DNA of 64,000 nucleotides from Yuukianura sp. NJ FZ-2021. Lineage: Eukaryota. A program made the translations under genes and the position numbers. The stretch lies in the NCBI GenBank assembly GCA_046563655.1, contig CM102290.1, forward strand, positions 12,524,001-12,588,000, written 5' to 3'. Below, piece after piece: positions 3,597-64,000 of this stretch (positions are counted from its first letter, which is position 1; every line of letters starts with the position of its first letter). Under the pieces are notes generated by a model. That model worked only from the letters and a program-made list of their open reading frames with translations, was not told where the DNA came from and ran no database searches.

Positions 3597-5487
3597 TTAA
3601 AAGATTTGAAGAAACTGAGTAGTTGTTCCGTCTCTCCACGAAGTGTCATCAACCACCCGAGCTCGACACATTGGACAGCTCCGTTCACCACGATCCAACC
3701 AGTTGGAAACACAGTCTTCACAGAAGATATGACCACATGACAGTTTGGTAGGACATGTGAAGCCATCATGACAAATTGGACAAAACTGCTCATTCAGTTC
3801 GTCCAGCGAAGGGACAGTACCGTAATGCTGAAATCAAAAACGAAATTGAAACTTTAGAAATTACAAATCATGGATTTACAATTGCAAATTGATGACTTAC
3901 GACTGGTTGAAGGAACTTTTGTAGAGCGAGTTTCCAAGCTACGAGGCGCTGAGACAAGTCGACCGACTTGGAAATGACGTACAATAGGCAAAGGATGAGC
4001 GAAAATATTTTGAATGTCCCATCATAGGCACCAAACAGGTAAATCAACCATGGGTTGATGGGCAGCAAGCAACGGTACATCTGTGACGTAGATTCGATAA
4101 ACATGTAGTGTTTCCCCTAAGATAACCAAAAACAATAATTAAAGTGTAGATACATAAGAGTTATGTAGTCGTAAACATCAGCTTAACAGCGGAGACTGAA
4201 CTTACTCGCTTCTGAAATAGTAACACTTCCTCTGGTAACATGATCATGAGACATTTTAGCATGACCGTCACGAATTTGGCCACAAAGTCGGTAACAAGAA
4301 CTACCCACAAAAGAGACTGGAATGATGACAGTGGGACGTCAGTTGTCAAACATACCAACCTAACCAAAAAAAAAAGCGTAGAAAGTTTTGTCTGAGTCGA
4401 AACATATAGAGTTCAGCTTACGCGGGATACAATCGGTCGGCTTCGAAGATATAATAAAGACAAAAAATGCAAATCAAGAGATTCATCATGACCATGAGGA
4501 GAAGAGGAATGCTCCGTTTGGATTGCTTTGTCACTTCACGTCGAATCAGAGTATTGGCATGACCAAAAGTTACAACCATACCCAGGAATACCGTGATTCC
4601 GCTGATATGGTCCAAGATTCCCTGCAAGAAAATTCATATTTTATAAAATGTCAAAAGACTTCGAGTAAAGGATTACCTTGAACATAAGAATCAACAGGAA
4701 AGGAAAGTATCTCTCAACGAGCACGAGGATTGTGCTTGCTTCGACTGGAATTTGTTCTGTTCCTTCTGAAACGTTGTCATGATGTCGGTCGTTGGTGGGA
4801 ACTGGTGGTGAACCGGTAGGAGGAGCTCTCCATTCATCAACATTGTCCGCAACGTCAATCACAACTGAGCCTGTACTACGACCACTGCTACTGCCAGAAC
4901 TGGAAGGAGGCGGTGGTGGTGGTGGGTACTCTATAAGAAATTGGACGTTTTAATTTGACCTGGATTATACTGTACATCTTAGATTACTTTGTACACTAAC
5001 CAGTCGTTTCGTGATCGTTTCCTGGAGATAAGTTGCCAGCGGATTGTAATCGTCGAGCGATTCGAATGACTCTGGGTGGTTGTGGCTGTGGTAGGATATT
5101 GGCGTTCAGTAGAGGAACTTGTCGAGTTTGCTCGTTGCCGATTGTCATAGAAACATCATTGACAAGCGGACTGTCCGGAGGAGCCATAGCTGCAATTGAA
5201 CCTGGTGAGTTAGAAGTAGACGACGAAGAACTACGTGGAGATGGTGATTCCGACGAAAGCGGGCGTTGGATATTCCTAATCCAGTCGTTTAGCATTGACA
5301 GCGGGAGTGGTACCCCTCCAGCGTCAGGGTTAGAAAGCCAATTCGGATTCAAGCGGAAGTCCAAATCAAATCGCCATTCGCGATCACGACGATCCGTGTT
5401 AGTACCGTCCGCCTGAGTGGATGCCGAATTGCTAGAAGTTGATGGATTTATGGGCTGAGTTGGTGGCTGCTGGGATGAACTTGACAT
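3597..5487 (-). CDS. RNFT: RING finger and transmembrane domain protein (RNFT1/RNFT2 family E3 ligase); about 6 coding exons
   Basis: S/P-rich N-terminus, several hydrophobic exons (YFPFLLILMFK, LWVVLVTDFVAKFVTVMLKCL, SQMYRCLLPINPWLIYL). The last exon (3827-3597) encodes C3HC4 RING CPICHDGFTCPTKLSCGHIFCEDCVSNWLDRGERSCPMCR followed by WRDGTTTQFLQIF*, typical of RNFT. Confidence 0.88.
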
Positions 5488-31394: not shown

Positions 31395-33604
31395 ATGACA
31401 ACAGACGAGGAAACTGCTGCCAAGGAGTCTAATGTGCCGGAAGTCGGGGGTATCGATAAGATGTACCAAATCTATGAGAAATTGAATTCAGCCGAGGATA
31501 AAGCGGCGGTACTAATTTAAACGGCAATGTTAAACTATGATGTGTTCATGTACTTACTTTAGTTTAATACGCAGTTGGAGGGGGAGTATCGCCATTTCAT
31601 GGAGGCAGCTCATCGATCCGATAAAGAGAAACGACTTGCCTCGCAATTCATCACTCGTTTTATCGAGTTCTTCCCAAAATCGTATGACGATGCCGTTGGC
31701 ACAATGTTGGATCTTTGCGACGAGGAAGATCAAGCCGTAAGCATAGCGGATAACGGATTTACAAAGCTCCGCAGGATTATTAGTATTAATGTGCTTAACT
31801 TTAACTTTAGTTGCGAATTCTTTTTGTTATAGATCCGGAAGCAAGTTATCAAGGATTTGTTTTTAGCGTGTAAAAAGGTGAAGCCTTCGGAAACGTCAGT
31901 CCCAAGGATTGTCGACGTTTTCTGCCAACTTTTGCTCACGGCGGACGTTTCTGAGACCCAGACTCTAGAAGCAAATATCCAGAGTCTGTTTAATACTGAT
32001 GCTCGCGGAACATTGGCGGGAATATTTGTGCAATTCCGTGACGGAGACGAAATTGTTCGTGAAGCAGTTTTGAAAATCCTAATTGCGAAGATTAAAGAGA
32101 ACAACCCCGACATTGCTAAGTTGCCGTTTCAGCAATCGCTGTATCAAGAAATTAAGCAAGTTGCTAAGGTACACACAATCACAATAGCATCAAGCAACTC
32201 TTATAGCAGATTCATGGTCTTAAAAAATTGTTTCCTTTGCAGTACATGACTGATGTGGAGTTGAAGACTCTGCTAGATCTCTTTCACTCCCAAAAATTCC
32301 TGCCGGAAGTAAACGGAAACAGTCAGATTGTGGATCTTCTCTACGAAAAACTTTCGTTGAAAGAAATGTTGAAGGTGGATGTCGCCTCGATCAGATCCTT
32401 GCATCAGACCACCGACAAGATCATGACTTTACTAAATGTAAGTTATTCGTGTTCGTATCGGAACTACTAGAAGTAGTAGTTTACATTCGTATTGATTTTA
32501 ATAGATTTTTCTATTTGTAGACCACCGTCCTTCCGAACACCCTAATAGTTTACTACTTTACCAAAGTTGTTCCCGTTATAACCAAGTTTGGCGGAGAAGA
32601 GAAGCGCACTGCACTTCAGCTGGATACGATGAAGAGAATTGCCGAGTTACTTCTACTCGCAAAAACTATTGAAGAACATGATGCCAAAATCTGTTTGGAT
32701 TCTGCTTTCAACTTAGCATTGGTATGTCAACTATCATCATTGTTAAATCAGCTGATCGCTCATTTGTACTTAAGTTCATATTGTTTCATGGTCTTTTGTA
32801 ATCTTAGGAACTTCTTCCCCCGGCTGATTCAGAACAAAAAGTAAATTTTTCACTGGTTGAATGCAGTTTGTTCTTTATCTATCAACTTGGAGGTCACTTG
32901 CCATCGTATATTCCTTCGTCGGAGCGAATGGACGACCTCACATCCCGTCTGGTGGCTTTTCATCGCCCAATCACTTCACACAAAGAAAATTTACGACAAG
33001 CGTTCAAAACTCACGAACTAAAACCGATGGATTTAACAGAGCTACAAAACAAGAAGAAGGTGAGTCACACCTTAGCGTCAATTTTTAAAGTTCCTGTCGA
33101 AAAGGCTTTACATGCCCCTTGTAAATGCTGTAATACTTTATTTTCCGTATTTGCTAGATTATCGCTCTCAAAGTTTTCAAAAACTTGGACATCTTGACGA
33201 GAGCTCTTTTGGAAGAGGAAATCAAGTACGGTCAGAAGATTCCACTGTCTTGGAAACCACTGACACAACCACAGCCTGCTCCTGCTCCCAAACGATCCTA
33301 TCCCACTCAAGGACACTTGAATGTAGTAGGTGGACTGAAAAATCCACGTCCAGGGAAAGACCGGGAACTCAAACGATATCAACCGCCTGGTGGCAAGTAT
33401 TCTCGCGGCGGTGCTTTCGGTAAGATCTGGTCAAAGTATAAACAATGGTGACAACAATTTCAGTTTCGATGACAAATTAATTGCGAATTAATTAATTTCT
33501 CAGGTTCGTATGGAGGAGGTGGCCGTGGTGGCGGCGGTGGATTTGGGAGGGGCGGTTTTGCAAGAGGGCGTGGCGGTTTCCGTGGAAACAACCGAAGGTT
33601 CTGA
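31395..33604 (+). CDS. API5: Apoptosis inhibitor 5 (API5/Aac11); exons 31395-31508, 31575-31736, 31833-32168, 32243-32437, 32521-32721, 32808-33059, 33158-33419, 33504-33604
   Basis: KEKRLASQFITRFIEFFP...LDLCDEEDQAIRKQVIKDL, FSLVECSLFFIYQLG, IPLSWKP, YQPPGGKYS and an RGG-rich tail match API5 landmarks; splice phases are consistent. Confidence 0.88.
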
Positions 33605-34242
33605 AGCGATTCATTCCTTTCTTTGACGCTCTCAAGACTCAAAATTATATACAGATTCTATAGTAAGTGTACACTGATTATGACCAAAAAGTCTCTTCAG
33701 TGTACACGCTAAAGTTTCATATAATGATTTTTATTTAAATTGTATATAAATAATAGCTTTTTACGTTATTCTAATTCGACATCGTTGGTTAGTTGTATTT
33801 ATTCGTACCAACAACTTCAGACATAATCTCCGGCATACCAGCAGCATCCACAAGGATATGGATTAGTTCCACTCAAGTCCAGCACTGATGCTGGCAGCAT
33901 TTTCATGCAAATGCGGAACTTTAGACAAATGCTACATAGGTATAACGTAGAAAGTAGAGGTACTGGCGAATAAGTAACGGACATCAGCACTCAACATTTA
34001 ATAAGACGAGATGCGCAACATTCTTTATTTCTCTCGTTCAGACTTTGAACCGGAAGAACTAGTGATAGTTAAGTTTCCCTTCTGGAGAAGGAGCTCAGTA
34101 TGCCCAGTTAACAGTTAAAACAGGAAGTGATTGGGCAGTTGACGGGGATTCATAAAAGTAGAATAAGGGAGCGAGTCTACGTGTTGCTGTGGGTGGGCAC
34201 TGTTTCTATGGCAACTTCGAATTGAGCGCCCCGTCTGGGCCT

Positions 34243-54300: not shown

Positions 54301-57300
54301 ATGGCCATTCTTGAGACACTTCTTATCCTTATCCTTATCGGTCCAGTGTCATTCTTCATCGGAACGGTCTTCGTCCTTGCAGCTCTTGGCAAATCATTCG
54401 GATTCCGAAAGAAGTATGTCCACTTCCTCCTCTACTTTTTTGAGGTAAGGTCACGTATTTATGGAATTAACTTAATTAAGACATAACGAACTCATAAAGT
54501 GAAAGGTCATAAAATTGTTGCCATTACTAATCAAAATGGTGTCTCTATTTGAAGCCTTGAGCTTCACCCAGACACAATTTTGACAGGAGTGGAGCCTGAC
54601 CTTGGTAATTCGATCCTGCCCTTGACCTTTCCTTTGTTCAAAGGCCACTAAAACGAGAGCTGAACAATGCATGTGGACATGACACGAGTCACATCAGTTC
54701 GTGTCATGCTCATTACTAATTCGTTGCTAAAGGCTTTTTAGTAGTTCCTAAAAAGTATTTTTGGAATCAATTTCAAAACACATCGGGACGCGAACGGGAT
54801 TTGAATTCGGTTTTTTAAGATGAAAGCTTGGAATGGATTTTGGAAATTCAAAATTTAAGTGAAAACGATCACAATTTGCGTTGGTTTGGTATTAACGTTA
54901 ATGCTAACAATAAGTAACTTGAGTTAAGTGGATTGTTATGGTAGGTAATGGCGCACTCCTTTTTTTAAGCTTTGGGAGAAAAACTTGGAATAGTTTCATT
55001 GTTAATTGGAACTTCCAGTTCCAAATTGGCACTTCCAATTTGAGTGATGTTTGTGGCTTGCTTGTGGGCATCCCTGGAACTGGAACTGGTATACTGTGCA
55101 AAAAAAATTTCCATTCTCTCATCAGTCATTTGTATTTTTATCTACAAAACTCACGAAATCTCGTCAAGGGCAAAATTTTACAAAGACCAAGACAGCCACC
55201 AAAAGTTAAGGTCAAGCAGAAGTTGTTGTTCGTTGCATATTGTAGGAATCACAGGATTTTACAACAACCTGATCTGTAATTACGTGTAACATTACAAAGT
55301 AACGTCCGCACGCCTACATCTAATTACTAATCGCAGGAATTGGTTTAGATTTCTTGAGGCACGTGACGACCACGAAGAATCAAGCATCATGGACGGAAGT
55401 ATCCGTTGATTGTTGTACAGACATTTGTCAGTTGACAGTCGATTAACTAAACTGGGAACCTTACTAAATTAAAACTAAAGTTCATCTCCATCACCAGAAT
55501 CCAGATGAACAGAACATGAACTTGACATGTGAACGCAGGAGATAATCTGTTGGACATAAAAGTCCAGCTTATCCTCTTGTCCAGAGTGCATTAATTCATT
55601 CCCCTCCAACATCTCCATTCGCCTTCCACTAAAATCTAAAATGTCAAGTGGTTTCTCCACTTTTTAAAATGAATTCCATTGAATCCATGGACCGACATAA
55701 GCCATTTTGTATTGAGCGGCGTTGGATCTGGATGTTCTAAATTTAAAGTGCAATGAAATGTTTTATTGAAGTTTTAAAAAATGGAGTTAATTTTTATGCT
55801 AAGAAAAGTAGACCATACGCGGTTTTAATTTTAGTTTAACTGTTGAATATGTTGAATTCTTGAAGTTTATTAATTTTGCTTTGGTTTGTTTGAATTCCAG
55901 TATGGAAGAAAACGGATAGAACATGCACAGAGGGCGAAGGATAACGAACGTATTGATGAGTTCGCTCATGAAGACGACGATTTCATAATGCCGGAGAGGA
56001 GGTCAACTCTGGAAACAGTTATGCAAGAAACGAAACGACGACTGAGCTTCTCCGACGTGAACCAGAATGGAAGAAGAAGAATCAGGAGTCGAAACTCGTC
56101 TTCGGTAAGTAAATCCAGAAAATTCAAAGTGAAATGCTTAAATACAAGTGTATTAATTGATTAATTGATTTGTTTGTTTTTAAATTAGGACTGTGGTGGG
56201 ATAATAACAGAAGAGCGTGCGGAGTTTGCATTGTGTGACGTTTTTGAATTTGCGCAATCCGGAATCGAGTCGATTGTGCAGGACCAGGTCACGCAGAGAT
56301 TTGTGGCTGAAGAACTCAAGGTGAGAAAATCGTTCTATTTTTGTTGTTAATGATTTTTTGTTGTGTTTTGGAAAACCAAATCAATCAACTTCAGTGCATA
56401 AAAAAGCAGTTTTTTTTTACTTTCACGAGTGCCGGATTAACTTTCATGTGGTTGCATTGACTGATAATTAGTATCAGCCTGTTGTTTTGGAAATTGTATT
56501 TGGAACATTGGAATTGGATCTCGAGGGGAAAAGTTTCTTTTTTATCTTTAGCATAAGCTGACTTGATGCAATTTGGTGTCAAAGTGCGAAATGCACCTAA
56601 GATAATTAGGTATTAGGAAATAAGAAAGTCATGTTCACAGAGTATGGTAGGACTCATGACCTGGAAGTGTTCATGGAATCATACGAAGTAAGAATTGAGG
56701 TCATAGTTCAATAGGTCCACCACATTCACGACTTTGACGCATGAAACCACATGGAAGAGCAAGGTCATTGTGAACTGTACTGTACTTGTACATTGATTTT
56801 GAATTTGATAACCACGTCCCCGTATTGTTTTCTTATGTTTGTTGAAATAACATAACCTTAATATATTAATCAATAAATTATTAATTTTGTTTATGTATTA
56901 CTGTGGTTGAGGTTAACCTTTGAATTGTTTCCATTTCAGTCCTGGAATTTGCTGACCAGAACCAATCGTCACTACGAATTTATCTCCTGGACGCTTTCAC
57001 TTATATGGCTGGTTGGGTTTTTGCTGCGATACTGCGTCATGCTTCCTTTCCGCGTCGTCATTTGCTTTGTCGGTGTAAGTCCGATTCTCCTTAATTCTCA
57101 ATTTCGTCGGAAAAGTAGGCAACAAAGGTCAACTTGTTGAGTTTGTTTACCAAAAACAAAATGTGATGTAATGTCATTGACTGCACCCATTTGGCATGTC
57201 ATAGTTAAAAGCCTGTGGGTTTCTAAAGTTATAGGTCAGTTTTTTAATTGCGATTTGTTTTGTTTTTGCAGACAACGACTCTGACGACCTTAACGTTCTT

Positions 57301-59274
57301 CATTGGATTACTTCCAGAAGACTGGCGCATCAAAAAGAAACTGAACAACCACGCATCCAAATTTTCGTTCAGACTTCTATCTCGAGCCTTCTCGGCCATA
57401 GTCACATATCACCAAATTGAAAACAGGCCGCGCAAAAATGGAATTTGTGTGGCCAACCATACGTCACCTATTGATGTCGTCCTATTGGCCTGTGATACTT
57501 CTTATGCTCTGGTGAGACTCCATTTGCACGAGTAGCGTGTTAGTTTCCATGCTCATGACTGCTCGGCTTTTATTTTGGCGGGGTTTGTCAATTTTCATTT
57601 CCTTGCAGCTTACGATCCTTCCTGAATTCTGGTTTCCTTCTCCTGTTCCATCCCGCTGCGATCCATTGCTTTTTAAACGTTCTGGAGTGTACCGAGTTCA
57701 CATTCACGTTGCAAAAATATGCAAAACGGTGCAAAATAACGTTGACATGGGTGTCAGATCCACTGGATACGTCTGGACCGCATTGGTGTTGGGGCTTGAG
57801 AACATGAATGTAGTTGGTACAAGGTGAGCTGTTGGTATGATGCAATCATAAGATAGGAATTAAGTAACTAATTAATAATTGTGCTTCCATAATTAATCTT
57901 GCAGCTTTTTGTTGTTTTCTGAACTTTCACATAATAATCGAATGAGCTTTGCTAAATCTGATTAATCGTAAGCCTAACGTGAGAGTTCATTGGCCAAAAT
58001 GCTTGAAAAAAACTAACTAATGCTATGTTGTGCCCGAGCACATTGGATATTAAGTGATCAGTTATGGTTGTTAACAATATTTATTTCTGTTTTAATAGAT
58101 CGGGCAAGTTCATGGAGGATTTCTGGGCATACTGCAACGAGCGCTTGGCCGAGCATCGTCACACATTTGGTTCGAGAGATCAGAAATGAAAGACAGAGAG
58201 GCTGTGGCTAGACGGTAAGTCTCCAAGTTTACTTTAGAATTTCACACACTAAAAGCCACTACGCAATTATTTGGTAATTATGAAGTAATTAGTGCTCGAG
58301 TTAATCGTGGATTTGTTGATGTCTTTTAGACTGAGGGAACACGTCGAGGATGCCAGCAAGTTGCCGATTTTAATATTTCCCGAGGGAACCTGCATCAACA
58401 ACAGTGCCGTTATGCAGTTCAAGAAAGGCTCATTTGAAGTAGGCGGTGTAATTTACCCTGTGGCCATCAAAGTAAGTCCAATTTCTAGTGTTGGCAAAGT
58501 GATTCTGACTGACGTTATATGACTGACGTTAGTAACTTTATGACAGGACCCCTTGTCACAATGCGTCAAAACCATTCGGATTTTTAATTTGTCTTTGTTT
58601 TTTACAGTATGACCCCAGGTTTGGGGATCCATTCTGGAACTCCCACGAGTACTCGATGCTCCAATACCTCTATATGATGATGACATCCTGGGCAATTGTC
58701 TGTGATGTTTGGTATCTCCCTCCCATGACACGCTTACCAGGCGAGTCGTCAGTTGACTTTGCAAACAGAGTGAGTGTCAGATCCCACAACTTTGGAAAAT
58801 ACAGCGGAACTTCTCATTCCGCAACTTTTAGCTCCACCTCTTCAGATATCGAAATATGGTGGAACCTATAGTTTTGGAGGGATTCACTTGTAAATGAAAC
58901 AAAACGCTTTCCTTGGTACAATATATATCAAATGTGTTTGAATTTGACAGCTTATGTTAGCCGCGTAAGTTTGTATTCAAAACAACCAATCAGCGTGTAT
59001 TGCACAATGAGAAGTTCCACTGTATACCGTTTATGTCAAAATCCGATTCAGTATCACTTATTTTGGTTGAATTTCTGTGCAGGTAAAAGCGGAAATAGCC
59101 AGGAAAGGTGGACTAGTAGACCTTGATTGGGACGGACAGTTAAAACGAGCTCCAGCGAAACGAGAATGGAAAGAAAAGGAGCAACTTAAATATTCCAGAA
59201 AATTTACAAGAGCTGTAAGGCGGATTGTTCCTCCAGGAGAGAGCCAAATGGACAATCCAAATCCCAGTACCTAA
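54301..59274 (+). CDS. GPAT4: Glycerol-3-phosphate acyltransferase 3/4; exons 54301-54444, 55901-56104, 56189-56320, 56940-57074, 57272-57511, 58099-58214, 58330-58471, 58608-58769, 59083-59274
   Basis: N-terminal TM; EELK|SWNLLTRTN; acyltransferase motifs ICVANHTSPIDV, HIWFERSE, ILIFPEGTCINN, IYPVAIK|YDPRFGDPFWNS; GGLVDLDWDGQLKR. Confidence 0.93.
58802..59022. mobile_element. Shorter member of the TA-TSD Tc1/mariner-type MITE family, in last GPAT intron
   Basis: ta|CAGCGGAACTTCTCATT...AATGAGAAGTTCCACTG|ta; both subterminal regions align with the 18084-18482 element (acttttagctcc(g/a)cctct; caaccaat). Confidence 0.8.
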
Positions 59275-59843
59275 AGTACCCCTTCATCTCCGTCTAAATT
59301 ATTATATGCTCAAATGCTGCCAGGAGAGGACCAATGGAAGAGAAGAACCCAGGGAATGCCAAGTTATTTTCGTATGTGTCTCAAGTCGGATCTGTTGTCC
59401 TCTCCCTTTAATGTAAGGGCTATCTCAATTTTGCAAGAATCTGTAGAAAGACTCCTCAGGAATTGGCATGTCCAATACTTGGGGAAGTTGCGGATGATCG
59501 GAGAAGCATCGGGGTTCTAATTACAAGACTAATGGAAGTTACATCTCTGTTAATAATTTTCTAATTAATTATAGTTTCGTACTCTCCATAACGTATTTCT
59601 CATCCTACATATTATATGATACAATACTTCCCAAAAAAACGAAACCCTTGAAAGACTTAACGGAAAATTAGAGATTGAATTGGAGGAAGTTACGACGAAA
59701 GGTGGAAATTAAAAAGAAACAGATGAGAAATTCAATGATTTATCGAAATTTGGGTGGTTTTAGTTATGTTGTTGTGGGAAATTGGAATTTGGGAGAGGCA
59801 ATGCTGGCAGTGTACTGGATTTGGTTGATTGAGTTGTGTCTGT

Positions 59844-61671
59844 TTAGTAGTCGGGTGGAAAGTGTCGAGTGGCCAAGCGCAGAAGTTCTTCATCAATTGG
59901 TGGGCGTGGTGGTGGGGGTTTGCGTGGACCGCTTTCTTCAATGACGATTTTGCCGTTGGCAAGACGAAAAATTATCAAGTTCTGAAGACGTAACCAGTCA
60001 GGCACTTCTACGGTCTCCTCTGCCCGTTCTCCGAGTCGCCTCAATGTCCGTGGCATGTCTCCTTTGACCTGGAATTTAGAAAAAACGTTTTGAAATGAGG
60101 CTTCTCTTGGTTTAGGATTTGGAAATTGAAAAAATATTGGTGGAAACCAAGGTTCCTTGACAACCAAAATAAAACAAATAACAACAGGTTGTCCAATACC
60201 TCAGGGTTTCCAAAAATCTTACTTCAATCAAATTTCTGCACCAACCCCATTTACATTACATGCAAAAAAAAAATAGCATAGAAAGGCAGATTTTTTTAAA
60301 CAAATTGAACTTCCAGTTACTGGACAACATGTTGTAGAAAAAGTTTTTTTTTGTTCAAGAACTTTGGGGGAAAACATACCGTGAGAAATGGTCGTTTGAA
60401 GTAAAATGAAATTTCGTGATCCTGGAATCTCTCCATGTTGATGATACAGCGGAAGCGATGAGGAACCCAGTTCTGTTTGTAGTCCAAATTTTCTCTGGAC
60501 AAGAACAAGATATTTCAACACTTTATGTTAAATGTTAAAATTATGTTAAAACTTACTTGAATTTTGTAGAGTCATAGCCTTCGGCAAAACAGTTGCCAAC
60601 AGTGCTGTTGAACACGTTTTGATGAGTGACGAGTCCATTGAGGATATGGAGTTCCCTTGGTTCATTTGGATTATTGGGATTTCCTGGTGGCTGCAGGTAG
60701 AAATCGCTGTGCATTGATTCTGGCATGCTGATTGAGTCAATCGACGGAAGTGGCACGGGGAAGTCAGCCGATGAAAGCAACTTCGGTGGATGCAGAATGA
60801 GTGGAACCGGTTTGAACTTGAAGTTCGTCTTGAGCCACTTGGCGACATTTCGCATAGCAAAGTTAGCTTTTGGTGGTTTCGGAAGTTGTGGCAACAAAGA
60901 TGGTGGTGACTTGTAGGCTTGTGGTAGTGCCGGTACCGTCTTGGCTCTATCGCCAACAACGTTTCCTAGACTAAACGTGGTTGTACTGGACGGGGATGCT
61001 TCGGACATCCTTTGCCGAATGCTGCCGGGAGTGATCGGCCGAGTGTAAAGAATCTCTGCTTGTTTCGGATTCGGTTTTTGACGTGGCGGAGCAGGCATGC
61101 GCATGAGCCGTTTTTCTTCTTTCCGACATTCTTCCTCGGCCTTGGCACTCACCCATTTCAGTTTCTTGGAATGTTGAAGAAATGGCTGAGATAGTCGTCG
61201 TTCTTCTTGTCGGAGATACTCGGTGGCTCGGTAAAGCTTGTAGGGATCCAAATGTTCAAAGTCAATCGGTTTGAAGTCCTGCGGAAATGGGAAGTGCGGA
61301 TGTTCTGGATCTTCTTCGCTTTTGCCCTTGTCAAGTCCTTCATCTCGGTACACAAGAGCAACAAGTCTGGCTTCACGCTCCGCCTTTCGACGAGCAATGA
61401 ATTCAGCAGCTTCACGTCTCAGTCGTTCCGCAGCTTCTGGCCATTGGATCTCCACATTTTCGTTAAACTTGACCTAAAAACGACAAAAAAAAAATTAAAA
61501 TTTGGAAACAATTCATGTTAAATGTAATGAATTTTGATTTCAATTTACCTGTTTCCGTGATTTCGGTTGAGTAAACGTTACAATTACGGACTCTTCTGGC
61601 TCTGGAAGCGTCTCTTTCAATAATGCTGACAAGTTACTCTCTAGAGCAGCATCCAACTCGTACTTTTCCAT
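59844..61671 (-). CDS. Uncharacterised ~459-aa protein with probable C-terminal alpha-crystallin (HSP20-like) domain; exons 61671-61549, 61473-60557, 60494-60380, 60068-59844
   Basis: Four exons join with GT-AG sites in consistent phase (0, 2, 0). Charged helical N-terminus, Pro-rich middle, and C-terminal HRFRCIINMERFQDHEISFYFKRPFLTVKG...EETVEVPDWLRLQNLIIFRLANGKIVIEE with alpha-crystallin-like spacing. Confidence 0.7.
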
Positions 61672-61838
61672 GTCGAAAAACTACACCGACACTTCGGCCA
61701 GCATTTACCAATTTAAGGATAACCAGAGAAGAAAAAATTTAGAAGCCTCAACACAACTTCACACACGAATTTTCCACTTTTCAAAACGAGTATGTTTCAA
61801 AATCATTGTTTTCTTCATTTCGCATGTTATCAGTCCAT

Positions 61839-61852
61839 GTTGCCATGGAAAC
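61839..61852. promoter_or_regulatory. RFX X-box GTTGCCATGGAAAC
   Basis: Exact match to consensus GTHNYY-AT-RRNAAC, ~170 bp upstream of the ATG at 61671 on the minus strand. Confidence 0.6.
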
Positions 61853-62009
61853 AAGTTAATTAAAATTAAAACAACTACAGTAAGAATTATATTGGTGTTT
61901 TTTTTTGTTGGAAAATGGGAATATTTTTTTGGACAAATTACCATTTTTTTTCTTATCGTCAAAAGAGTAATTTAGAACTTACGTAGTATTACTAAATATT
62001 TCATTTGCG

Positions 62010-64000
62010 TTATGAAAGGATGTTGCTGTTGCCTTTGATGGATTTGGGCTCTTTCGTTTTCAGTTCTTCAACTGAATTCAGTTCATCAAGCAAAATATTT
62101 TTAAAAATTTCATCCTCCTCCTCGTCTTCTCCAGTTTCACTCTCATCAGTATCCGGTAATTCGAATCCCTTAGCATCCAAATACCTGACAGCACGATCAA
62201 AGTGACTCATACTGAAGGTTTCGGTGGCAATCAGTTCCTCCAAAACATCTTGTTCTTCCTAAAATCATGGAAAAGAATGTCATATGCCATCTTCGATTGG
62301 TAATCGTTTTATGTGTTTAAGTTTACGTCTGATTCAGCGAAAGGTAACTCCAGGCACGCCTTGTTTATTTCTTGCATCTCTTCATCTGATAGTTTAGGTT
62401 CGTTTACCTCCGCTAAACTATGCAGCATGCAACCGGTTTTTTCTAACGCCTTCATACAGATATTTGTACAGTAATCAGTCGTGTCGCCCAACACTCTCCC
62501 GCACGGTTCAAATAACATTTGATCCGGATCCTGAAAAAAAAGTGAAACAGTACTGCACTACTTTGCTTACTTCACGAACGATTACGTGAACTTAACTGGT
62601 GTAACTTACGTTGAGGATGTGGGTTTTGCAGTAATCGGAGAAAGGTAGGGGCAAGTTAATACAATTAGACGAATCCTCACTGAAGACACAAGTCCGTTGA
62701 GATGGAGTGCCGGAATATATGTTTTTGTCCAGAATATCCGTCGTCACTACCTTGTCCGCCCTGATGGGCAGCGGACGAATGATAGATTGGACCAGATTAT
62801 ACGGATTTTCAACACAGTTTTCAAATATTATGTCTCCAGGAGGCAAACTTTCGTCACGAATCTGTAATGCTGCGTACTTCTAAAACAAAAGTTTTCAAAA
62901 TTTAAAAATCAATGAGCTACAACTAATTTCACGGTATGCTTACCTCGTTTTCCTTCATTGCTTGAAGTAGAACGACCTTCTTGGCTCCACAGCGATGGCG
63001 GTACCTCATGAGTGCTAGGCTTCTCTCTCGGTTCTCCATCTCCTCTTCCTTGTACTTGTCCGTTAGCTGTAGGTTCCTTCTGTAACTGATGAACTTTGGA
63101 TCTGATGTGAAGCTGAACTTGAGTAAATCGTTTTCCTCTGATTCATCCACACATCGCTGTCGACAGTCCATATATGCATCTTTAAGGCCACTAAATTGAG
63201 ATTTGTAAAGAGACCGCAACTTGTCAAGTCTGGACCGGTAGATTGAAATCACTTCGTCTGTGGAGTAGTAGCCAGCATGTCTACACAGAGAAACAAATAA
63301 CAGGAATGTTCATGCACCATTCAACAAACAATGAATCATAGTCGTAGTAAATGCAATAAAATGTTATGCTTTATAGTACTTGAGCGGGTCTTCGTCACCA
63401 GTCTCGACGTTGTCCTCGTCAGAATCCTGGTCAGGTTGAAACCGGGAGAGGAGTTGGAGGTCCCTTGATTGATGTTCCAGTAACTTCGTATCGAAGTCCG
63501 AAAAATAATCTTTGAGGTCGTCCTTCTCTTTTGTTTCTCTTTCGTGTAACACTGGAGAGGGAGGGGTAGGTACCGTCTCTTCTATAAACAACAAGAGTAA
63601 GTCAGTGTCGAGGTGAATCAATCAAACCGGTAAATCATAAAAGAAAGCTCACGTCCATCGCCTCCCGGAGACGCAGAAGGTGACGGAGGGAATGGAGGGT
63701 CGCTGCCTATTATTCGCTCCAGTTCTTCCATCAACGAGTCCATACTGTCCTCGTCATCGATTATGATCTGTTCTTTCCTCTGCTTACGCAGTCTTGTGGC
63801 GGTTACACACGCCGAATGAACTTCGCAGAATTTACTGTCCAAAATCAAACAAAATGTTAGAAGAATCCAGGAACACTTTGCTCAAAGGGAGAAAATTAAC
63901 GTCAATCATGCCACTGATTCTTACAATTCCCGCTCGTCCTCCCCATAAACAGTTTTCTTGCAAGGTTTGAGGCTGAAAGGATCGGTGTAGATGCACTGAG
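62010..64000 (-). CDS. KANSL2: KAT8 regulatory NSL complex subunit 2, 5' partial; at least 7 exons
   Basis: DPLK|HAGYYSTDEVISIYRSRLDKLRSLYKSQF, ALMRYRHRCG, and zf-C3Hc3H CVFSEDSSNCINLPLPFSDYCKTHILN|DPDQMLFEPCG...C...CMLH match KANSL2 landmarks. Confidence 0.82.

Follow-up and report, generated by a model that had tools for sequence, protein, structure and literature searches.

We found that the window, by which we mean the whole 64,000-nucleotide stretch of Yuukianura sp. NJ FZ-2021 DNA analyzed here, carries a single-copy, spliced, conserved gene with an exact X-box of the kind used at cilia genes in the source genome. The explanation that we consider best, with a probability of roughly 45%, is that this gene is driven by RFX and encodes a ciliary or flagellar scaffold whose crystallin domain is degenerate and which may also carry a PP1-docking motif.

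The four minus-strand exons that the earlier note had joined into a protein of ∼459 amino acids form one open spliced frame, with a total coding sequence of 1,380 nucleotides that translates into 459 amino acids with no internal stop (Table 1). Introns 1 to 3 measure 75, 62, and 311 nucleotides, and every one is of the GT..AG type. Contigs were compared over positions 57000 to 64000 of the window for four of the five listed runs. Contigs of run X4 skip all three introns exactly as modeled and also skip 11 listed introns of the two neighboring genes; these introns are not skipped in the contigs of X2, X3, and X5. Although X4 is labeled “DNA?,” we took it to be RNA derived on the ground that 14 listed GT..AG introns are missing from its contigs, and the splicing support for the gene is that of one run and one sample, with no tissue or sex recorded. 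The X-box gene is a real spliced protein-coding gene, and its predicted product is basic, with a mass of 53 kDa and a pI of 9.1. Searches of its own genome covered 98.7 Mb in 22 contigs, and three such searches matched this locus alone; the genome also holds 41 matches to arthropod cuticle proteins (PF00379). The repeat within intron 3 has 39 other copies (77 to 85%) among the 40 scored of 366 genome-wide candidates and carries imperfect inverted arms.

Table 1. Features of the X-box gene and its surroundings (window coordinates)
Feature	Position	Strand	Remarks
Exon 1, residues 1-41	61549..61671	-	X4 junction; first 14 amino acids 71% identical in L025
Exon 2, residues 42-347	60557..61473	-	Conserved helical block at 42-170; linkers variable and rich in Pro/Ser; further conserved blocks at 246-275 and 313-347
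Exon 3, residues 348-385	60380..60494	-	Putative beta2-beta5; 115 nt in both species; 58% identity with L025
Exon 4, residues 386-459	59844..60068	-	Putative beta7-beta9, then a Pro-rich linker, a terminal helix, and the stop; 48% identity with L025
Degenerate alpha-crystallin-like domain (putative), residues 361-428	59940..60454	-	Spliced across intron 3; fold inferred
Interspersed high-copy repeat in intron 3	60145..60365	.	Depth peak; missing from the orthologue's 82-nt intron
Exact palindromic RFX X-box, GTTGCCATGGAAAC	61839..61852	.	168 nt 5' of the ATG; overlapped by the 3' transcript end of the upstream gene
Candidate PP1-docking RVxF plus hydrophobic-pair motif, residues 40-52	61441..61554	-	Motif scan; spans intron 1; lead only

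The gene had previously been called an orphan, which is too strong a word. A word search with exon 2 returned one protein, P0001 (44%), and an exhaustive phmmer search with the same exon against 1.84 billion representatives returned three relatives, P0001 (E value of 7e-62), P0002 (8e-27), and P0003 (1e-5), all of them unnamed singletons in which no Pfam family reaches the cutoff. P0001 is encoded on metagenome contig L025, where the syntenic orthologue is modeled as a protein of 465 amino acids with three introns in the same positions and phases and an exon 3 of the same length; we infer that its splicing follows the pattern of the window gene. Its neighbors are conserved too, with a zf-C3Hc3H gene upstream and an acyltransferase gene converging from downstream. 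P0003 (22% identity) has three N-terminal blocks in common with the window protein and stops where the exon 2 frame stops, which hints at a shared intron. Viral and prokaryotic collections contained no relative, none of the longer proteins was matched by an exon 4 profile, and exon 4 had no usable match in the ESM Atlas, where the best score (0.79, for P0003) is at most a lead. Judged from these comparisons, the X-box gene is a member of a small unannotated family, and the N-terminus of its product is not just linker sequence.

Conservation between the window protein and the L025 orthologue is uneven along the exon 2 part, with identities of 57% (residues 42 to 170), 27% (171 to 245), 67% (246 to 275), 27% (276 to 312), and 63% (313 to 347), and stays high in the C-terminal part, at 62% (348 to 360) and 56% (361 to 430). 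The N-terminus is thus charged and Pro rich, as the earlier note had it, yet it also contains three conserved blocks of 57 to 67% identity. Likewise, the residues quoted there for the structured C-terminus are present, but its length is ∼70 amino acids (361 to 430), or ∼80 if the conserved stretch 352 to 360 is included, rather than ∼85. An AlphaFold model of exon 2 built from four rows (pLDDT of 51.7) has predicted long helices at exon 2 residues 11 to 46 and 77 to 125, with low confidence beyond them, and Foldseek returned nothing for it at E values up to 0.001. The exon 4 model, built from two rows (pLDDT of 61.5), contains three short strands or a beta-hairpin at low confidence; it had no Foldseek or VIA-align match, which for half a domain at this confidence says nothing either way. 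A profile of exon 4 found only chance-level ETS matches among PDB sequences.

Across the junction of exons 1 and 2, the protein reads K-Q-V-K-F (residues 40 to 44) followed by V-x-I-x-W. We scanned for such motifs with the RVxF regular expression, and the strict match at residue 40 is the only one in the protein, with ∼0.02 expected per 459 amino acids (1 in 24,840 residues of long frames from the same genome). This raises the alternative that the protein is a PP1-targeting subunit, whose N-terminal motif would recruit PP1 while the rest of the chain tethers it; given a working X-box, this would take place in cilia or flagella. An RVxF motif followed by a hydrophobic pair is the common PP1 docking mode according to PMC9813921, and the orthologue keeps V-K-F and the hydrophobic pair followed by x-W (VKF plus V.[IV].W), with an alternative in-frame donor yielding K-R-V-K-F. 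With the other donor, however, the orthologue has no basic residue there, the motif segment is unmatched in the PDB at E values up to 10, the hydrophobic pair is described in PMC9813921 as hardly recognizable from sequence, and the motif was noticed after the fact. We regard a PP1-targeting subunit as decidedly unlikely, and as compatible with the scaffold reading rather than exclusive of it.

The C-terminus is probably a beta-sandwich derived from an alpha-crystallin domain, and if it is a crystallin domain, then it is a degenerate one. Standard searches count against this. PF00011 (HSP20) was matched neither by five exon pieces of the window nor by exons 3 and 4 of the orthologue, in a scan of separate exons, and the genome's 23 PF00011 matches do not include the window locus. 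The lack of an HSP20 hit, which the earlier note had said would refute its proposal, is thus what Pfam returned on separate exons. We built a crystallin profile from 16 of these 23 matches, after dropping one near-duplicate and six partial ones. An HMM of the 16 domains did not report the window protein and gave the orthologue 0.6 bits. A position-specific scoring matrix (PSSM) of the genome's own domains scored the two-row C-terminus at −5.6, compared with 70 to 112 for true domains that were left out. Among 600 shuffles at a time, 74 reached this score when columns were permuted, and 253 and 349 did so when blocks were. Apart from these tests, the genome contains tandem runs of six (C4:1628018-1631565), five (C7:1793110-1795122), and three (C7:7829222-7830372) alpha-crystallin matches.

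Profile-to-profile alignment and the spacing of the hydrophobic core point the other way. Against the crystallin profile, hhalign aligned 68 to 72 columns, from beta3 to beta9 and nearly without gaps, with a score of 17.4, an E value of 0.012, and a probability of 3.5%. None of 235 column shuffles reached this score; block shuffles did so 17 times in 237 and 7 times in 173, though never over 60 columns or more. A core pattern of 22 positions taken from the 16 domains is met at 17 positions in both sequences and at 18 in the window protein, in a register of 66 ungapped residues and a 12-residue loop equal to that of the profile. A core score of 17 was reached in 0, 0, 0, and 1 of 2,000 shuffles. 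Because the crystallin hypothesis had been chosen by eye before testing, these and the other chance counts for the domain are flattering. Among 273 natural stop-free frames, many of them noncoding, 17 was the peak once and 18 was never reached; the 16 true domains themselves score 13 to 22 of 22, in sample.

The same core could belong to another small beta domain of an RFX-driven ciliary or sperm gene, with the crystallin likeness due to convergent beta-strand periodicity. The negative Pfam, HMM, and PSSM results, the hhalign probability of 3.5%, and the absence of several crystallin signature residues would all agree with such a domain. Real fibronectin type FN3 domains (20) and CS domains (5), however, reach only 10 to 14 of the 22 core positions, and against convergence stand the ungapped 66-residue register, the profile's 12-residue loop, and the retention of Pro behind beta7 and of Gly in the turn between beta8 and beta9. 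We consider this alternative unlikely. CS/p23-like proteins (PF04969) include NudC and dynein assembly factor types, several of them ciliary, and their domains belong to the same beta-sandwich superfamily as crystallin. In hhalign, the window C-terminus scored 11.1 against FN3 and 9.0 over 12 columns against CS, the latter a weak control with five poorly aligned rows, against which true crystallins score 12.2. On the crystallin profile, a score of 17.3 was reached by none of 40 FN3 pairs and none of 15 CS pairs. The alpha-crystallin assignment made in the earlier note therefore has modest support from the core pattern and from hhalign scores above those of CS and FN3, but none from Pfam, the HMM, or the PSSM. 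We also considered whether residues 240 to 360 contain another crystallin domain, in split form, which is unsupported (hhalign E value of 0.76).

In detail, the window protein shares with metazoan small heat shock proteins (sHSPs) of PF00011 the beta3-beta9 hydrophobic core spacing, a Pro following beta7, and a Gly in the last turn; several other signature residues are missing. Glu403 of the window protein and a Glu of the orthologue occupy the position of the Arg that forms the beta7 dimer salt bridge, a site that we take to be Arg120 in alphaB-crystallin numbering; two divergent tandem PF00011 domains of the same genome (L021 and L022) also have Glu there. The salt bridge role of this Arg is described in PMC8913478; its partner in alphaB-crystallin is D109. 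Unlike some sHSPs, the protein lacks a C-terminal I-x-I after the domain and an N-terminal SRLFDQ; the L025 orthologue has a single I-x-I at its extreme end, which is not common to the window protein. It further differs from them in escaping Pfam and HMM detection, in a 350-residue N-terminus with conserved blocks of its own, in the absence of a heat shock element upstream of its gene, and in its mass of 53 kDa, compared with the 14 to 43 kDa given for sHSPs in PMC8913478. It is a probable, highly diverged variant of the HSP20 kind, which from its sequence we would not file as a member.

We confirmed that the X-box reported ∼170 bp upstream is exact and stands 168 nucleotides from the ATG. The window contains three X-box-like sites (six strand matches with at most one mismatch) versus 0.95 expected, and none of 100 shuffles had as many. 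The other two, at 33576-33589 and 34202-34215, lie between the convergent 3' ends of the API5 and Mst1/Hippo-like kinase genes. Genome-wide, GTTNCCATGGNAAC occurs in 125 copies versus 5 for its reversed control, a 25-fold excess. Exact X-box copies also occur inside duplications, namely, L027/L031 (582 nucleotides, 99.7%) and L028/L035 (377 to 431 nucleotides, 92 to 95%, in a tandem repeat array), and these duplicated segments slightly inflate the genome-wide count. We determined the gene context from the 10 longest frames at each of the first 15 sites listed, a nonrandom set. Four of them stand 171 to 341 nucleotides 5' of frames for IFT74 (named from a PDB match), a KIF3-like kinesin, a DUF4470/DUF4471 protein, and a kinase; we take the third to be DNAAF3 and the fourth, which had no match at 1e-25, to be CDK20. 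Two sites fall inside housekeeping frames (urocanase and HMG-CoA reductase), and the remaining nine are without a clear cilia gene, one following an adenylate-kinase-like exon and four of the other eight making up two duplicated pairs. In the source genome, the X-box is in all likelihood meaningful. The identified sites precede general ciliogenesis genes, and the gene may serve either sensory cilia or sperm.

The genome has two strong RFX domain matches as well as radial-spoke-3 genes, and RFX control of the X-box gene is probable, judging from the site and its genomic company. At the radial-spoke-3 loci L070, L076, and L075, the DNA examined contains relaxed matches but no exact X-box, which gives no link between exact X-boxes and sperm tail genes in this genome. 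One such relaxed site, at positions 2458-2472 of L075, is palindromic. A search for Hydin gave no match and is uninformative, as its controls were likewise unmatched. According to PMC2375033, an X-box alone is not predictive of RFX control. The window gene resembles the Drosophila RFX regulon (PMC2375033) and the mouse RFX2 targets (PMC4498915) in having a restricted-consensus X-box a short way 5' of its start codon, with a possible counterpart at the matching place in a second species. The earlier note had asked for X-box conservation in related genomes: L025 has no exact X-box, but an unguided alignment places GTTGTCACGGGAGC (positions 3875-3888, 260 nucleotides before the ATG) in register with the window site. 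This counterpart is degenerate, as 4 of its 12 half-site bases differ, and a relaxed site arises by chance in 82 of 500 shuffles (16%). On its reverse strand it fits the Drosophila consensus GYTNYY-N1-3-RRNRAC, within the rule of “at most 4 of 12 differences” given with that consensus in PMC2375033. In contrast to the established regulons, the second-species site only just satisfies this rule, and RFX dependence is putative here.

A degenerate L025 site would also suit the alternative that the protein is a degenerate sHSP derivative with a general or nonciliary role (in stress, muscle, or cuticle) and that the X-box is incidental or unused, e.g., as part of the upstream gene's 3' untranslated region. 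The spliced contig of the upstream gene does cover the X-box, ending at 61791, ∼220 nucleotides beyond the stop (61791-62010), and the sHSP set of the genome is expanded and divergent, with tandem domains. In a locus so compact, however, an upstream transcript running over the X-box is compatible with its use as a promoter element; positions 61693 to 61790 appear uncovered in X4, a gap that does not point to a start site. Against a nonciliary role stand the 25-fold excess of exact X-boxes over the control and a position and spacing like those at cilia genes. Heat shock elements (at most one mismatch) are absent from the 339 and 511 nucleotides upstream in the window and L025, compared with matches in all five ordinary sHSP loci within 1,500 nucleotides, a weak comparison given the longer flanks. 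We consider a nonciliary sHSP derivative doubtful, though somewhat less so than the alternative of another beta domain.

Under the preferred scaffold reading, the promoter X-box would put the gene into the RFX program that builds cilia and flagella, and RFX would turn it on in ciliated neurons or spermatids. The product would be a basic 53-kDa scaffold that runs from a helical N-terminus through short conserved blocks, connected by Pro-rich linkers, to a beta-sandwich at the C-terminus. Its helical N-terminus and degenerate beta-sandwich would bind structural partners, and in sensory cilia or the sperm tail the domain would most likely serve to dock or assemble partners of the axoneme or basal body. 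We propose docking rather than the role of a stress-induced holdase because the domain has lost the Arg that is canonical for the dimer as well as the I-x-I at the C-terminus. Such a protein would act like ODF1 in spirit, without being an ODF1. In mammalian ODF1/HSPB10, the crystallin-type domain follows an extended N-terminus and the protein has a structural role in the flagellum (PMC9499666 and PMC8913478), and the window protein is possibly alike in this. In contrast, ODF1 is a 27- to 28-kDa, Cys-rich protein with C-X-P repeats, whereas the window protein has three Cys residues, its orthologue one, and neither a C-X-P repeat; ODF1 was returned by none of the searches for relatives among proteins and the PDB. 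The analogy to ODF1 drawn earlier amounts to functional speculation, and the window protein may be an ODF1 analogue at most. RFX2 drives spermiogenesis genes in mouse, Odf1 not being named in the main text of PMC4498915. Our literature searches, with most subscription papers outside their scope, found no publication joining the X-box or RFX with sHSPs and cilia and none on a testis-specific structural sHSP of the insect sperm tail.

If the inferences about fold and cilia are both true, the gene would represent a second, independent recruitment of an sHSP domain into a ciliary or flagellar structure. This would fall in a lineage, the Collembola, whose sperm axoneme is described in PMC7140630 as having no accessory tubules. 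It would also mean that crystallin domains diverged past the reach of Pfam reside in unannotated genes. At the far end of such scenarios, and with only a slim chance of being right, the gene would belong to an old unannotated arthropod family that combines a crystallin domain stripped of its chaperone signatures with a PP1-docking N-terminus under RFX control, making it a structural protein that anchors phosphatase in the cilium or sperm tail and that arose independently of ODF1. Should the fold fail, a conserved, unnamed cilia gene candidate would remain, which is useful but ordinary.

Besides the two strong RFX domain matches, the genome contains 41 weaker ones, many of them in frames of 1,000 to 1,400 amino acids. 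The one copy that was scanned for domains (L074:1225-4560, minus strand) is a frame of 1,112 amino acids with a weak PHD finger, an RFX DNA-binding domain (E value of 2e-11), and a reverse transcriptase (E value of 1e-20). We found no publication on an RFX domain retroelement, again with most subscription papers outside the scope of the search. The matches in long frames suggest a multicopy retroelement with an RFX-type domain.
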